Assembly: GCA_963714015.1 (NCBI GenBank)
Contig: OY970223.1
Location: 1,504,001 to 1,568,000 of the forward strand
Origin: Vulcanimicrobiota bacterium
GTDB taxonomy: Bacteria; Vulcanimicrobiota; Vulcanimicrobiia; Vulcanimicrobiales; Vulcanimicrobiaceae
Length of the DNA stretch: 64,000 bases
Direction: 5' to 3'
Part shown: positions 129 to 35,774 of the stretch, in pieces
Layout of the letters: each line of letters starts with the position of its first letter
Numbering within the stretch: the stretch's first letter is position 1
Notes under the pieces: generated by a model
What the model saw: the letters and a program-made list of their open reading frames with translations, nothing else
Databases searched by the model: none
Told to the model about the DNA's origin: nothing
Translations under genes and position numbers: made by a program

Positions 129-1133
129 TTAGAATTTCACGAGCTCGCGCATAGCGTCGGCCATCTCGGCTGGAGAAGACATGTACTCTTCCTCCAGTGG
201 GAGCGCGTAGCCCATCGCCGGGACGTCCGGTGCCGCGAGACGTCGAATCGGCGCGTCCATCTCGAAGAATGCTTCTTCCGCGACCATTGCGCTGATTTCG
301 GCGCCGATGCCGCCGAACTTGTTGTCCTCGTGAATGATGAGCAGCTTGCGCGTCTTGCGGATGCTTTCAAGAATCGTCGTGCCGTCCATCGGACGGATCG
401 AACGCAGGTCGATGACTTCGACCGACATGCCTTCGTTCTCGAGTGCGTTTGCCGCTTCGATCGCCCAATGCACGTACAAACCGTAAGACACGACCGTCAG
501 TTGTGTGCCGGCTTTTTTGACGTCGGCCTTGCCGATCGGGATCGTGTAGTGACCGTCGGGCACTTCGCCTTTGATCAGGCGATAGGTCTTCTTGTGCTCG
601 AGAAAGAGGACCGGATCCGGATCGTCGATAGCCGCATTCAGTAAGCCTTTGACGTCGGCGGGGAATGAGGGCGCCACGATCTTGAGGCCCGGAACGTGGT
701 AGAACAGCGCTTCAATCGATACGGAGTGCGAAAGCGCGCCGCGAACGCCGCCGCCGTATGGCGTGCGGATAACGAGCGGGCACGTGTATTCACCGTTGCT
801 GCGATAACGCGTCTTGGCCGCTTCGCCGACGATTTGATTGTATGCCGGGTAGATGAAGTCGGCAAACTGAATCTCGGCGATGGGCCGCAGGCCTTCCATA
901 GCCATGCCGACCGCGATACCGACGATCGACGCTTCGGCGATCGGCGTGTCGATCACGCGTTCCGGCCCGAATTCCTTGATGAAGTCCTTCGTGATCAGGA
1001 AGACGTTGCCGCGATTGCCGACGTCTTCGCCGAGTATGACCGTGCGGTCGTCGTTCTTCATCGCCTCGTACAACGTCGCGCGCACCGCTTCGACGTTGTT
1101 CAGAATCTGCGACGTGCCGGCGGCTACTGCCAT
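129..1133 (-). CDS. bkdAB: 2-oxoacid dehydrogenase E1 beta subunit (branched-chain type)
   Basis: LGEDVG, DTPIAE, EIQFADF and DPVLFLEHK motifs; start set at MAVAAG after SD GAAGGAG. Confidence 0.9.
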   Translation of the reverse strand: MAVAAGTSQILNNVEAVRATLYEAMKNDDRTVILGEDVGNRGNVFLITKDFIKEFGPERVIDTPIAEASIVGIAVGMAMEGLRPIAEIQFADFIYPAYNQIVGEAAKTRYRSNGEYTCPLVIRTPYGGGVRGALSHSVSIEALFYHVPGLKIVAPSFPADVKGLLNAAIDDPDPVLFLEHKKTYRLIKGEVPDGHYTIPIGKADVKKAGTQLTVVSYGLYVHWAIEAANALENEGMSVEVIDLRSIRPMDGTTILESIRKTRKLLIIHEDNKFGGIGAEISAMVAEEAFFEMDAPIRRLAAPDVPAMGYALPLEEEYMSSPAEMADAMRELVKF

Positions 1134-1258
1134 GGCTGCCACGCTCCTTCGTTTGAACAGGCGTATGCGCGCTCCGCGCTCCACGCCCCCCGCACGCTAA
1201 GCGCGCGGGGCCCCCGACCTTCGGTCCCCTTGCCAAGGTTGAATGTGGTCACTGCCAT
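1124..1258 (-). CDS. Putative 44-aa relay peptide 3 (MAVTTFNLG...EGAWQPWQ)
   Basis: ATG overlaps the end of peptide 2; its end overlaps the E1-beta ATG. Confidence 0.45.
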   Translation of the reverse strand: MAVTTFNLGKGTEGRGPRALSVRGAWSAERAYACSNEGAWQPWQ

Positions 1259-1383
1259 GGCTGCCACGCTTCTTCGTTTGAACAGGCGTATGCGCGCTCC
1301 GCGCTCCACGCCCCCCGCACGCTAAGCGCGCGGGGCCCCCGACCTTCGGTCCCCTTGCCAAGGTTTAATGTCGTCACTGCCAT
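1249..1383 (-). CDS. Putative 44-aa relay peptide 2 (MAVTTLNLG...EEAWQPWQ)
   Basis: SD GAAGGAG plus ATG overlapping the end of peptide 1; open to TGA at 1249. Confidence 0.45.
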   Translation of the reverse strand: MAVTTLNLGKGTEGRGPRALSVRGAWSAERAYACSNEEAWQPWQ

Positions 1384-1439
1384 GGCTGCCACGCTCCTTC
1401 GTTTGAACAGGCGTATGGGCGCTCCGCGGTCACTGCCAT
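1374..1439 (-). CDS. Putative 21-aa relay peptide 1 (MAVTAERPYACSNEGAWQPWQ)
   Basis: SD GAAGGAG plus ATG inside the last codons of E1-alpha. Confidence 0.45.
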   Translation of the reverse strand: MAVTAERPYACSNEGAWQPWQ

Positions 1440-2458
1440 GGCTGCCACGCTCCTTCGTAGAGATTCGCGTATAGTTCGGATGGGGCCGGGTAGGCCATAG
1501 TCTCGGCTTTGTCGGTCGCTTCGTTCGTTTCGCGAAGCACGTCTTTCTTGAGCGCCTCGATGCTTTGTGCGTTCAGCACGCCCGCATCGGTCAAGATGCG
1601 CTCGAAGCGCGGAACCGGATCGAACTTGCGGTTCTCCGTAACCTCGTCCTTGGTGCGGTAAGTCATGTCGTTGTCGTCGGTCGAGTGCGCCAGAAAACGA
1701 TAGCATACGCCCTCGATCAAACTCGGACCGCCGCCGCTGCGCGCGCGATCCATTGCGCGTTTCACGACGTCGTACGTCGCAATCGGATCGAATCCGTCGA
1801 ACTGCTCGCCCGGCATACCATAGCCTTCCGCGCGCTTGAAGATGTTAGGCTCCGCCATCTGCTGGTCCAGCGGCGTGGAGATCGCCCATTGATTGTTCTC
1901 GACCAGCATCACGAGCGGCAGCTTGTGAATCGACGCGAAATTCATGGACTCGTGCCACTCGCCTTCGCTCGTCGTTCCGTCGCCGCAGGTTACTAGAACG
2001 GCGCGCCCCGTTTCCTTGCGATATTTCATCGAATACGCGGCACCGACAGCGTGCGGAATGTGCGCGGCCAGAATCGAGGAAAACGACATCAGCCCGGCAC
2101 GTTTGGACGAATAGTGGTTCGGGAACTGGCGGCCGCCGTTGTGGTCGGCGGCCCGCGCGAATATGGAGAGCATGATCTCGTAAGCCGACAGACCGATGCC
2201 GGTCGCTAGGCCGAGATCGCGATAGTACGGCGCGAGTATGTCCTTGCCGCGCTCGAACGCCATTGCCGCGCCCGCCTGCAGCGCTTCGTGCCCCTCACTT
2301 CCGAGCGCAAAAGGCACCTTGCCTTGGCGGTTGAGTTGAAAGCCGCGGTTGTCCAATTGCCGCTGCAGCAGCATATTACGGAATATCGCGACCAGCTGTT
2401 CGTCGGACAGCCCATGCCGCTCCAGTGTTCCGCGCACTTGAGTATTCGTTTTTGCCAT
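1430..2458 (-). CDS. bkdAA: 2-oxoacid dehydrogenase E1 alpha subunit, copy 2
   Basis: PYYRDLG, TPP motif GDGTTSEG...NN, YRFLAHST. Confidence 0.9.
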   Translation of the reverse strand: MAKTNTQVRGTLERHGLSDEQLVAIFRNMLLQRQLDNRGFQLNRQGKVPFALGSEGHEALQAGAAMAFERGKDILAPYYRDLGLATGIGLSAYEIMLSIFARAADHNGGRQFPNHYSSKRAGLMSFSSILAAHIPHAVGAAYSMKYRKETGRAVLVTCGDGTTSEGEWHESMNFASIHKLPLVMLVENNQWAISTPLDQQMAEPNIFKRAEGYGMPGEQFDGFDPIATYDVVKRAMDRARSGGGPSLIEGVCYRFLAHSTDDNDMTYRTKDEVTENRKFDPVPRFERILTDAGVLNAQSIEALKKDVLRETNEATDKAETMAYPAPSELYANLYEGAWQPWQ

Positions 2459-2478: not shown

Positions 2479-3504
2479 TTACTGCCATGGTTTCCACGAG
2501 TTCGCGTAGACGTCCGTGTAGAGAGCCGCGGTCTCGGGATACGGCATTGCTTCCGCCCTGTCCGTGGCTTCGTTCGCCTCGGCCAGTACGGATGACTTCA
2601 CGGACTCCGCCTGCGCCTCGGTGATCACGCCGCGCTCCACCAACAAGCGTTCGAACTTCGGGACGGGATCGTCTTTTCTCCGGGTGGCGACTTCTTCGCG
2701 CGAACGATAGGTTCGGTCGTCGTCGTCGGTCGTGTGCGCAAGAAAGCGGTAGCACTTGGCTTCGACTAAAGTCGGTCCGCCGCCGTGCCGCGCGCGGTCC
2801 ATCGCGTCCTTTACCGTCGCATATACTGCGAGCGGATCGAAGCCGTCTACGCGCATACCGGGAATGCCGTATCCGGCAGCGCGCTTATAAATATCCGGCT
2901 GACCCATTTGCCCTGAGAGCGGCGTGCTGATAGCCCACTCGTTGTTCTCGCACAGAAAGACTACCGGCAGCTTGTGGACGCTCGCGAAATTGAGCGACTC
3001 GTGCCATTCCCCCTCGCTCGTAGCACCGTCCCCGAACGTGGTCAAGACGGCGCGGCCGTGCGCTTTGCGCAATTTGAGCGCGTATGCGGCGCCGACGGCA
3101 TGCGACGTCTGCGCGGCGATGATGGAGCTGATGGTGTACATTCCCAGCCTCTTGCTGGCGTAGTGATGCGGAAACTGACGTCCGGCGCTATGGTCGCCGG
3201 CTCGGGCGAAAAGCGAGAGGAGGACCTCGTAAGGAGTTAACCCGACGCCAAGCTCGAGGCCCAGATCCCGATAATAGGGGACCAGGATGTCCTTGCCGCG
3301 CTCGAACGCCATGGCTGCGCCCGCTTGAACGGCCTCATGACCTTCGCCGGCTGAAGCGAACGGGATTTTGCCTTGCCGGTTCAGTTCGAAGCCGCGCCCT
3401 TCTAAACGGCGGTGCGTAAGCATGATGCGCCAAATTGCGATCAACTGCTCGTCGGTCAAACCGTGCCGTTCGAATTGGACGCCGGAAGCAGCTTTGGAGG
3501 TCAC
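2479..3504 (-). CDS. bkdAA: 2-oxoacid dehydrogenase E1 alpha subunit, copy 1
   Basis: PYYRDLG, GDGATSEG...NN, YRFLAHTT; paralog of the adjacent gene. Confidence 0.9.
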   Translation of the reverse strand: MTSKAASGVQFERHGLTDEQLIAIWRIMLTHRRLEGRGFELNRQGKIPFASAGEGHEAVQAGAAMAFERGKDILVPYYRDLGLELGVGLTPYEVLLSLFARAGDHSAGRQFPHHYASKRLGMYTISSIIAAQTSHAVGAAYALKLRKAHGRAVLTTFGDGATSEGEWHESLNFASVHKLPVVFLCENNEWAISTPLSGQMGQPDIYKRAAGYGIPGMRVDGFDPLAVYATVKDAMDRARHGGGPTLVEAKCYRFLAHTTDDDDRTYRSREEVATRRKDDPVPKFERLLVERGVITEAQAESVKSSVLAEANEATDRAEAMPYPETAALYTDVYANSWKPWQ

Positions 3505-12381: not shown

Positions 12382-13731
12382 TCAAACAGTGACGGTCGTT
12401 CCGCGGACGGCAACGTCGGCAGCCCAGCCGTATTTGGCGCGAACTATCCCGCAGAGGCTTTGCGCGGCCGGCGGATCGCCGTGCACCGCGTAGAAGTGCG
12501 GTTTGGCCGTACACGTGTCGAGCCAGCGCTGAATCTCGTCGCGATCGGCGTGCGCGCTGTAGCCGGTGATGTTGCCGGTTGCGGCTTGCACCGGCAGCAG
12601 ATCGCCGAAGATCCGAATCGTCTTCGCGCCCGACATGAGTATCGAGCCAAGCGTTCCGGCGCCCTGATAGCCGACGAATAAAATCGTCGCCTTCGGATCC
12701 GAGACGTGGTTGTACAGGTGATGCAGCACGCGCCCGCCGGCCGCCATGCCGCTGGCGGAGACGATCAGATGCGCGCCTGTTACGTGATTGATTGCTTTCG
12801 ATTGATCGGTCGTCACCGCAAGCGTGACATTGTCCGCGCCGAACGTCTTGCCGTTTTGTGCGGGAAGCGGTTTGCGCGCTTCCGGAAACTTCTCGAACAA
12901 CTCGTCGACCTTCTCGGCCATGGGACTGTCCAGATAGATCGGCAGCTGCGCGATCTGCGGATTGCGCGCTTGCAGCTGGCCCATTGAAAACAAAATTTCC
13001 TGGGTGCGTTCGACGGCGAATGCCGGGATGACGATCGCTCCGCCGCGTGCTATGGCCTGCACGAGCGTTTGTTCCAGGGTGCCGAGCGCATCCGGTGGAT
13101 GCACGCGATCCCCGTACGTCGACTCGCAGATCAGCGTCTGCGCCGGCCCCATGGGCGTGGGGTCGTAAAGAAGCGTGCGATTGTATCGCCCGGCATCGCC
13201 TGAAAACACGATCCTGTTCCCGTCTACGTCGATTTGGACAAACGCGGAGCCGATGATGTGCGCCGCATTCTGAAAAGTCGCGGTCATGCCGCAAACTTGA
13301 AACGGCTTTGCGAGATCGATAGCCTTCGTGAACTGGATCGTCCGCTGCACGTCCGCTTCGTTGTAGAACGGCGGAGGCGCATAATGCTCGTTGTGCATCC
13401 CTCGCTTGTGCAAGTGACTCTGCAGATTCACCGCGTCTTCGAGAACGATCGCCATCAGCGCACGCGTCGCCGGCGTCGCGTAAATGGTTCCACGGAATCC
13501 GTCGTGCACGAGTTTCGGCAAATAGCCGACATGATCGATATGACCGTGCGTGATGACGATGGATTGAAGCGATTTGGGATCGAACGGAAGCGGCAGCGAG
13601 TTCATCGCCGTAACGCTTTGCAGACCCTGGTATAAGCCGCAATCGACCAACAGGCTCTGTCCGTTGTTTTCGAGCAGATGTTTGCTGCCGGTGACGGTTC
13701 CGGCGGCGCCGATGAAAGTTAACTCAGGCAT
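12382..13731 (-). CDS. MBL/beta-CASP ribonuclease (YSH1-like)
   Basis: VTGS, THGHIDH, ESTYG, SAHAD. Confidence 0.88.
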   Translation of the reverse strand: MPELTFIGAAGTVTGSKHLLENNGQSLLVDCGLYQGLQSVTAMNSLPLPFDPKSLQSIVITHGHIDHVGYLPKLVHDGFRGTIYATPATRALMAIVLEDAVNLQSHLHKRGMHNEHYAPPPFYNEADVQRTIQFTKAIDLAKPFQVCGMTATFQNAAHIIGSAFVQIDVDGNRIVFSGDAGRYNRTLLYDPTPMGPAQTLICESTYGDRVHPPDALGTLEQTLVQAIARGGAIVIPAFAVERTQEILFSMGQLQARNPQIAQLPIYLDSPMAEKVDELFEKFPEARKPLPAQNGKTFGADNVTLAVTTDQSKAINHVTGAHLIVSASGMAAGGRVLHHLYNHVSDPKATILFVGYQGAGTLGSILMSGAKTIRIFGDLLPVQAATGNITGYSAHADRDEIQRWLDTCTAKPHFYAVHGDPPAAQSLCGIVRAKYGWAADVAVRGTTVTV

Positions 13732-35222: not shown

Positions 35223-35611
35223 CCTTCGTCGGGCCAGGCCGCCAGTTCGCCTACCGCGGCACTCTTGAGCACTTTTAAGCCCAGCATTGCGCACTTCATC
35301 CGTGTCGGGCTGATGCCGATACCGACGTTCTCCAGAACGGCTTCCTTCGGCAGACGCGCAATCTCTTCGAGCGTCTTGCCCTTCACCGCTTCGGTCAGCA
35401 TCGAAACCGACGCCTGGCTAATGGCGCAGCCTTTTCCGGAGAAACGCACGTCGCTCACGCGGCGCTGCCCATCGATGTTGAGTTCGACGCGGATTTGATC
35501 GCCGCACAGCGGATTCAGATCCTCTGCAACCGCGTCCGGAGCAGTGAAGTGACCGTAATTTCGCGGATTGCGATAATGATCGAGGATAAAATCTCTGTAG
35601 AAATCGTCCAT
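35219..35611 (-). CDS. sufU: SufU/IscU-type Fe-S scaffold
   Basis: ILDHYRNPRN, NPLCGD, GCAISQAS, RMKCA. Confidence 0.9.
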   Translation of the reverse strand: MDDFYRDFILDHYRNPRNYGHFTAPDAVAEDLNPLCGDQIRVELNIDGQRRVSDVRFSGKGCAISQASVSMLTEAVKGKTLEEIARLPKEAVLENVGIGISPTRMKCAMLGLKVLKSAAVGELAAWPDEG

Positions 35612-35633
35612 TTTAAAAGGCGCTTCGCCCTAG

Positions 35634-35668
35634 GCTCCGCGCCCCCCACGCTGAAGCGTGGGGCCCCC
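35634..35668. repeat. REP-like GC hairpin, homologous to the hairpin in the 125-bp repeat at 1178-1215 and 1303-1340
   Basis: GCTCCGCGCCCCCCACGCTGAAGCGTGGGGCCCCC vs GCTCCACGCCCCCCGCACGCTAAGCGCGCGGGGCCCCC. Confidence 0.7.
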
Positions 35669-35717
35669 ATTTCCTCATGGCGCGTGAAGCATTCTGCCTA
35701 TTCATGGCCTCCCCGAG

Positions 35718-35774
35718 GGCGCCGGGGAGATTGTACGTGGCGCCGGAGAGATTGTACGTGGCGCCGGGGGGATT
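35718..35774. repeat. 21-bp tandem repeat, about 2.7 copies
   Basis: GGCGCCGG(G/A)GAGATTGTACGT at 35718 and 35739, partial copy at 35760. Confidence 0.9.

Follow-up and report, generated by a model that had tools for sequence, protein, structure and literature searches.

The closest described counterparts of the repeat reported here are the interspersed repetitive units of mycobacteria (MIRUs), which are credited to Supply et al. 1997 in the available text of PMC12548453 and PMC3184786. The available sections of PMC3184786 (2011) describe MIRUs as elements of ~40–100 bp with GC-rich internal inverted repeats, which exist in 40–50 copies per genome within polycistronic operons. In the same sections, tetranucleotide direct repeats are found at filled sites, and the ends of the open reading frames (ORFs) overlap the adjacent genes (PMC3184786). 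According to the available portions of both papers, a relay of the kind considered below has already been proposed as a mechanism for MIRUs in mycobacteria (PMC12548453, PMC3184786). Here we analysed a 64,000-nucleotide stretch of a Vulcanimicrobiota bacterium (family Vulcanimicrobiaceae; assembly GCA_963714015.1, contig OY970223.1, positions 1,504,001–1,568,000; hereafter the window), in which a tandem repeat array separates the genes for E1-alpha and E1-beta. This spacer is probably a lineage-specific tandem array of a MIRU-like intercistronic repeat, whose mini-ORFs would relay ribosomes. The concept of a MIRU-type relay is already known. The repeat family itself appears to be undescribed, and no description of it was found in print, the paper on the first isolate of the phylum included.

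Compared with MIRUs as the available text portrays them, the Vulcanimicrobiaceae repeat is likewise small and GC-rich, contains internal inverted repeats and exists in tens of copies in a genome. It also lies intergenically within operons in the orientation of the genes, and its ORFs overlap at their ends with the stop and start codons on either side (by 10 nt in each of the three mini-ORFs at E1). It forms tandem arrays with a varying number of units and has empty orthologous sites, and as for MIRUs, the empty versus filled sites indicate insertion. In contrast, it belongs to another phylum, the core motif being found mainly in metagenome-assembled genomes (MAGs) of Vulcanimicrobiota/Eremiobacterota among the matches listed. 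Its units measure 90–131 nt versus ~40–100 bp and share a conserved two-hairpin architecture backed by covariation. Moreover, at E1 the coupling signals come from a duplicated native junction (10-nt overlap ATGGCAGTGA) and not from the ends of the element. Because the host group differs from mycobacteria, the repeat is likened to MIRUs by design and not by sequence, and an analogy rather than membership is claimed.

All positions are given in window coordinates, and the E1 genes and the array all lie on the minus strand (Table 1). A 25-nt junction, GAAGGAGCGTGGCAGCCATGGCAGT, occurs four times with spacings of 56, 125 and 125 nt, where one copy (J2) has a single mismatch (GAAGAAG), and no chance copy is expected (100 shuffles). 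Tandem Repeats Finder reports a period of 125 with 2.4 copies and 97% matches. The two full 125-nt units differ at 3 of 125 positions, and the 56-nt unit equals a full unit minus 69 nt plus one substitution. Each 125-nt unit is composed of a 90-nt diverged member of a repeat family, 10 unassigned nt and the 25-nt native junction, and the whole array lengthens the E1-alpha/E1-beta spacer by 306 bp. Stop-free mini-ORFs of 21, 44 and 44 codons start from ATGs at 1439, 1383 and 1258, and each of them ends in WQPWQ-stop with a 10-nt overlap with the next ATG (ATGGCAGTGA, or ATGGCAGTAG for the last). That both independent unit lengths are 2 mod 3 without an in-frame stop has a chance of ~0.05–0.1 by rough estimate, which is suggestive and not decisive. 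The original prediction, made from the letters of the stretch alone, had described the four spaced junction copies, the three coupled mini-ORFs, the few differences between the 125-bp copies and a GC hairpin in the units. All of these were recovered here by sequence match, shuffles, the ORF list, fold prediction and covariance-model alignment. It had overlooked that the repeat is a dispersed structured element, and that only the E1 locus duplicates a long piece of the native junction.

The source genome (G000) is a 3.56-Mb single contig scored 89.6% complete. In this genome, the inner part of the E1 unit matches 4–5 other loci at 78–92% identity, and the nearest subfamily copies lie directly upstream of L11, GyrA, L10 and response-regulator genes (named by eye from their first residues). 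When Tandem Repeats Finder was run on the whole genome, ~10 further arrays were found with a period of 110–131 and 1.8–4.8 units, whose common core includes a GC-rich hairpin. When 9 array units were made into an nhmmer profile, it detected 39 copies at 23 loci. For the structural alignment, 18 copies, one per locus, were picked from 29 near-full-length matches. In this alignment 93.8% of the cells of two hairpins pair, and double-sided changes occur in 27 cells versus 9.2 ± 2.1 in shuffles (none of 500 reached 27) and 3–7 cells when the partners were slid. The two hairpins of the family are thus backed by covariation. A long-range helix P1 proposed by RNAalifold (columns 14–18 with 66–70) was replaced by GGCGC/GCGCC (columns 10–14 with 50–54), which is weakly supported (87.8% paired cells, double-sided changes in a single pair).

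A covariance model built from the 18-copy alignment (R1) has 47 matches in the source genome, both 125-nt E1 units among them. The E1 units score 27.8 bits (E 8.7e-8 in a local search, 5.2e-4 genome-wide), which is weak compared with the 60–132 bits typical of the family. They align to R1 from end to end (positions 1–122) with a 36-nt internal deletion, and carry the 5' AAYCTTGGC block and the 3' TTYAAA end, which places them in the family. In these units hairpin P2 is CCCCGCGCGC-TTA-GCGTGCGGGG and hairpin P3 is GGCGT..ACGCC, which encloses a GCG/CGC stem. The two hairpins are preserved through compensatory changes and predicted in the fold. Rfam gave no match at E up to 10 on positions 900–1700, and only tRNAs and chance plastid matches on 20 loci with family copies. 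On the minus strand of the array or of the window's single copy, no terminator-like site was found by a search for intrinsic terminators; the tail after the hairpin is TGTTCAAAC in the E1 units and TTTTAAA in the main family. A sigma-70-like promoter was likewise found neither in the array nor in the window's single copy.

R1 matched 17 of 24 other Vulcanimicrobiaceae genomes, with up to 43 matches per genome, and in two neighbouring families none of the 5 and 11 genomes matched. The unpublished genomes G010, G021 and G023 are counted in these tallies. The inner part of the repeat unit, for which the original prediction had proposed a search in the genome and in relatives, is therefore dispersed in both. 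An exact scan of species representatives for the core motif returned at least 124 stretches. Among the 80 matches listed, 65 are named as Vulcanimicrobiota/Eremiobacterota/WPS-2 and 10 as 'uncultured bacterium', and 5 carry other names, namely Limnocylindria (1), Binatia (2) and Acidimicrobiaceae (2). The E1 junction region was searched in 25 relatives, where the end of alpha was found next to the start of beta, and 13 junctions were inspected. All 13 are single-copy and read ...GAAGGAGCNTGGSARCCRTGGCAGTAG (or TGA)..., where the stop is overlapped by a GTG or ATG. The stop/start overlap is therefore ancestral, and the 306-bp array is lineage-specific. Similarly, a 3-unit array upstream of a GyrB-like gene corresponds to an empty site of 16–37 nt in 5/5 relatives. 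Units within most arrays are 96–100% alike, whereas copies across loci average 74% column identity, which indicates that arrays grow by local duplication.

The array might be an artefact, a stutter or mis-join in the tandem repeat of a single-contig assembly, and we consider this very improbable. No public sequencing run contains more than 0.05 of the sampled words of the strain (no RNA run was listed), and the genome is 89.6% complete despite its single contig, both of which leave some room for such an error. Four runs yielded short contigs of relatives only, 90–99% alike, and two of these contigs join ~1103/1108 straight to 1432 with 17–22 other letters between, which is the array-less form. 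Against an artefact, the full units are not identical (3 differences in 125 positions), the third one lacks 69 nt through a clean deletion, and the flanking genes are intact. Family arrays of 1.8–4.8 units exist at ~10 other places of the same genome, and similar arrays exist in other assemblies (2 units in G007, 3 units in G009). A named MAG (L123) also has 4 motif copies ~123 nt apart.

The family has a strict positional habit. At 22 of 23 loci the proximal copy ends 0–19 nt (mostly 0–3) before a same-strand start codon (an rpmJ-like gene being recognised by eye), and the remaining copy lies amid tRNA genes. Downstream genes confirmed by Pfam encode S19, L14, L5, L6, ATP synthase alpha, an LpxA-like acyltransferase and NifU_N. 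The co-oriented ORF upstream usually ends 0–60 nt before the element. These positions relative to the flanking co-oriented genes indicate that the family is intercistronic and located inside operons. In the ribosomal-protein cluster (L016, G000:C1:2276500-2282600, together with L017), a full or degenerate copy was observed at five junctions, before S19, L14, L5, L6 and an L36-like gene, so the element is tolerated inside one of the most highly expressed operons. The E1 copies lie in sense orientation between E1-alpha and E1-beta, with the 3' end 17 nt before each ATG and the native Shine-Dalgarno sequence (SD) in between. This 17-nt gap is common to three of the four nearest subfamily relatives (L10, L11, response regulator), and the gyrA copy abuts the ATG. 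No significant long flanking direct repeats were found at 12 single copies, and a long target-site duplication was therefore dropped as a family trait. The duplication of the 25-nt junction is peculiar to the E1 locus. Terminal complementary blocks are short and imperfect (GGCGC...GCGCC), and ATGA stands on both sides of the element at atpH–atpA.

The E1 array could also be read, as in the second alternative of the original prediction, as an adaptive device, in which the number of units is tuned to set the E1-alpha:E1-beta ratio. Each re-initiation is expected to be less than fully efficient, so unit number could scale the output. Arrays of 2–5 units exist at ~10 loci and are absent at the checked orthologous sites of relatives, so copy number varies between lineages, as such a device would need. 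However, the E1 locus is not special in this respect, since the family precedes ribosomal-protein, ATP-synthase and unrelated genes, as expected for a mobile element. The E1 subunits function as a fixed-ratio heterotetramer, and producing less beta would bring no obvious benefit. An adaptive role at E1 is thus unlikely.

To compare the bridging ORFs with chance, a relay was defined as an ORF chain linking the upstream stop to the downstream start, and the null was a mononucleotide shuffle of the spacer. Under strict limits (ATG or GTG, −11 to +6 nt), a relay was found at 12 of 17 evaluable loci of the source genome versus 2.6 expected (6 skipped for want of a flanking ORF), and at 17 of 36 loci of relatives versus 3.0 expected (12 skipped). 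Under loose limits the values were 14/17 versus 6.5 and 23/36 versus 9.6, respectively. The 48 loci of relatives were not drawn at random but were the best-scoring ones (G015, 20 of 38 matches; G017, 11 of 26; G013, 9 of 19; and eight other genomes with one each, the unpublished G021 and G023 among them). Coupling frames at other junctions, which the original prediction had proposed to compare with chance, thus exceeded the shuffled expectation in both sets. Mini-ORFs end most often in ATGA (−4); one or more mini-ORFs are present at 22 relay loci of relatives, and 11 of these show this ending. A further idea, that stops next to the start codon close all three frames so that any frame couples, was dropped, as this was seen in 2 of 22 proximal copies versus 0.7 expected.

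In G015, 15 of 20 copies show an ATG only a few nt from the 5' end of the element, mostly at a fixed place just inside. In 8 of 20 copies the last base of the upstream stop is 1–2 nt from the element, and stop and ATG then abut or overlap. The mini-ORFs of this genome have 38–41 codons, and their end either forms an ATGA overlap or falls a single base short of the next ATG. The G015 copies use two different frames, so that there is no conserved peptide. At the orthologous atpH–atpA site, G011 is empty, and G000 and G009 carry full elements that are read in different frames. In G001 and G002 internally deleted remnants have lost the hairpin and retained an ATG...ATGA mini-ORF. These remnants are the best evidence that the open frame, and not the peptide, would be what is maintained. 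Functional small proteins of 44 and 21 residues are accordingly hardly credible as the purpose of the array. Their frames are open and equipped with SD and ATG, as a coding function would require, but a Pfam search with the 44-aa product gave no match and two of the three differences between the units alter the peptide. Copies of the family read in different frames would also give unrelated peptides, and the array is absent at the inspected junctions of relatives.

We consider the following course of events to be the probable one. A diverged and internally shortened member of the ~115–125-nt structured repeat family would have entered the E1-alpha/E1-beta junction and been amplified locally into two full units and one in-frame-deleted unit, each unit bringing with it one copy of the native 25-nt junction, where stop and start overlap. 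The array would be co-transcribed with the operon. Ribosomes at the end of E1-alpha would start again on the overlapping ATG, read mini-ORFs 1, 2 and 3 one after another, melt the hairpins en route and arrive at the E1-beta start. The insertion would thereby be tolerated and the coupling of the subunits kept, the peptides themselves being presumably functionless. Family membership, covarying structure, the pre-start habit, the enrichment of mini-ORFs and the absence of the array at the inspected junctions of relatives are all observed. Translation through the array and the hand-over of ribosomes are plausible in the light of the comparative evidence. The proposal in the original prediction, a small repeat element whose insertion avoids polarity because it preserves coupling, therefore stands as regards the dispersed repeat, its position before start codons, the excess of bridging mini-ORFs and the lack of the array in 13 relatives, while its translational part is inferred.

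Several points weigh against this relay. The last junction copy holds an intact SD (GAAGGAG) 10 nt before the E1-beta ATG, so E1-beta could initiate independently and the mini-ORFs could be irrelevant, and in the second-last copy, J2, the SD is weakened (GAAGAAG). Since the copies are homologous, the excess over shuffles could reflect inheritance from a master copy and not selection. The relay is also uneven among genomes (13/16 in G015, 2/9 in G013, 1/3 in G017), and 7 of 11 sampled loci of G017 are not between two co-oriented ORFs by the criteria used. Gene calls followed simple ORF rules, and the elements contain G/C homopolymer runs, at which length errors of long-read assembly would shift frames. 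The 25-nt junction flanking the element has no counterpart at the 12 single copies, which lack long flanking repeats. Finally, at a fabZ–lpxA-like junction of G009 (L059, C122 ~13030–13260), the element is antisense and flanked by inverted CCACCCAG and CTGGGTGG. The flank also holds the duplicated first 13 nt of the downstream gene, and this copy suggests an inversion of the element together with the start-codon region.

These points leave a smaller yet appreciable chance that the mini-ORFs are incidental, where the repeat is selfish or neutral, or serves as an RNA hairpin for mRNA stability or processing, and E1-beta initiates on its own SD. The covariation of the hairpins indicates selection on structure and not on coding, two of the three frames of the GC-rich conserved core are open anyway, and many copies in G013 and G017 have no relay. 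In the available text of PMC3184786, enterobacterial repetitive intergenic consensus (ERIC) and repetitive extragenic palindromic (REP) sequences are reported to affect mRNA stability, which fits such a role. In contrast, bridging ORFs are 4–6 times more frequent than in composition-matched shuffles in both the source genome and relatives, the atpH–atpA remnants keep a mini-ORF after the loss of the hairpin, and both independent unit lengths (125 and 56) retain the coupling frame. These three observations argue for the relay.

Other repeat classes share part of these traits. Like REPs and bacterial interspersed mosaic elements (BIMEs), the family consists of hairpin repeats rich in GC, which may be clustered, are transcribed with the genes around them and can sit between genes of an operon. 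REPs are ~35 bp, often lie between convergent genes and are linked to the Y1 (REP-associated tyrosine, RAYT) transposase, according to the available sections of PMC3184786. In contrast, the units here measure 90–131 nt and lie just 5' of start codons, and PF01797, the Y1/RAYT transposase, has no match in G000 (89.6% complete), whereas control genomes do match. The repeat therefore does not fit a REP, and RAYT/IS200-type mobilisation was rejected for the lack of a PF01797 match in G000. With ERIC (~127 bp) and miniature inverted-repeat transposable elements (MITEs; Correia, RUP and Nezha), it shares size, imperfect palindromes, transcription with neighbours and presence/absence differences, as these are given in the available text of PMC3184786. 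MITEs have terminal inverted repeats that match an insertion sequence (IS) and short target duplications, whereas no flanking direct repeats were found here at 12 single copies. The strict pre-start position and the bridging ORFs of the Vulcanimicrobiaceae repeat are not MITE traits.

Rickettsia palindromic elements (RPEs) insert within genes and become part of the protein. Like RPEs, whose size is given in the available text of PMC3184786, the Vulcanimicrobiaceae element is a small palindromic repeat that is tolerated in putatively translated sequence with its frame open. Unlike them, it occupies the space between genes, with a stop and a start codon as its limits. Neisseria REP2 and the Borrelia inverted repeat (IR) resemble it in providing a gene with signals for translation initiation from directly upstream, as described in the available sections of PMC3184786. 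These bring a promoter according to the same source, whereas none was found here in the array or the window's copy, and the copies lie inside operons behind a co-oriented gene.

Table 1. Coordinates of the E1 genes, the junction array and the single family copy in the window
Feature	Position	Strand	Evidence and remarks
E1-alpha paralogue, first (341 aa)	2479..3504	-	ORF list; Pfam E1_dh 6.3e-86; ends SWKPWQ-TAA
E1-alpha (342 aa)	1430..2458	-	ORF list; Pfam E1_dh 8e-79; ends EGAWQPWQ, TGA at 1432-1430
E1-beta (334 aa + stop)	129..1133	-	Pfam Transket_pyr 1.8e-41, Transketolase_C 2.7e-38; ATG 1133-1131
Junction copy J0	1432..1456	-	native E1-alpha 3' end; SD GAAGGAG, ATG 1439-1437, overlapping stop
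Mini-ORF 1, 21 codons (MAVTAERPYACSNEGAWQPWQ)	1374..1439	-	stop overlaps following ATG
Repeat-unit remnant	1401..1431	-	3 nt of 5' end + 28-nt 3' end; in-frame 69-nt internal deletion
Junction copy J1	1376..1400	-	sequence match
Mini-ORF 2, 44 codons	1249..1383	-	ORF list, sequence
Repeat element copy A (90 nt, AACCTTGGC...TTCAAAC)	1276..1365	-	hairpin P2 at 1313-1335, hairpin P3; covariance model R1
Junction copy J2	1251..1275	-	weakened SD (GAAGAAG)
Mini-ORF 3, 44 codons	1124..1258	-	TAG stop overlaps E1-beta start
Repeat element copy B (90 nt)	1151..1240	-	hairpin P2 at 1188-1210, hairpin P3
Junction copy J3	1126..1150	-	native E1-beta start region
Full-length single copy, main repeat family	35610..35732	-	R1 132 bits, best in genome; ends 2 nt before NifU_N ATG

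In the first 3.5 kb of the window, the minus-strand order is the E1-alpha paralogue, E1-alpha, E1-beta and a further gene starting at ~57, whose initial residues resemble a lipoyl-domain E2 (by eye only). Two E1-alpha paralogues thus stand in tandem before a single E1-beta, as if alpha had been duplicated ahead of beta. The last bases of the first paralogue, CCATGGCAGTAA, mimic the alpha/beta junction. Relatives show a weaker second match to the alpha end ~1 kb upstream, which indicates that the tandem-alpha arrangement is old.

Further repeats were observed at or near copies of the family. The single copy of the window lies between a long ORF and NifU_N, and its 5' side has two extra partial copies of a 23-nt piece (CCGGCGCCACGTACAATCTC-like). 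At G000:C1:1950400-1950569 (L014), the first ~30 nt of the element (GGCGCCCTCGGGGAGTGAACGAATCTCCCC) are repeated in tandem at least five times upstream, giving in-frame APSGSERISP repeats. The subfamily element before the GyrA-like gene lies between two short arrays in which a 45-nt repeat (GCCGAAGGCAATCTCGCCTTTTGGCACTCAAACGAACGTAAAGGG) recurs (L003, G000:C1:1029011-1029154 and 1029380-1029479). Elsewhere in the genome, a 276-nt tandem repeat with 7.7 copies at 82% identity (G000:C1:3316067-3318187) probably lies within a large repetitive protein gene.

A broader reading of these data is possible and remains tentative. Vulcanimicrobiaceae may carry a mobile structured 'coupling cassette', which would colonise operon junctions, those of essential ribosomal-protein and ATP-synthase operons included, survive by the mini-ORF relay, expand into arrays resembling variable number tandem repeats (VNTRs) that tune downstream output, and at E1 have captured the native junction for a three-step relay. 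It would then be an independent, non-mycobacterial instance of the MIRU strategy, here combined with conserved hairpins. If this is true, the relay strategy would be suggested as a general route for small repeats into operons. Should the relay function, invasion of operons by a small mobile repeat that keeps translational coupling intact would be known from a second lineage, unrelated to mycobacteria, and the MIRU design would be a general solution instead of a peculiarity of one group. For the annotation of Eremiobacterota/Vulcanimicrobiota MAGs the family is relevant as well, since copies lie on start codons and give spurious small ORFs and possible miscalls of start sites. Strain typing in this uncultured soil phylum could use the arrays as VNTR markers. 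With its three units, one weakened SD and one in-frame deletion, the E1 locus itself would be a natural construct for serial termination–reinitiation.

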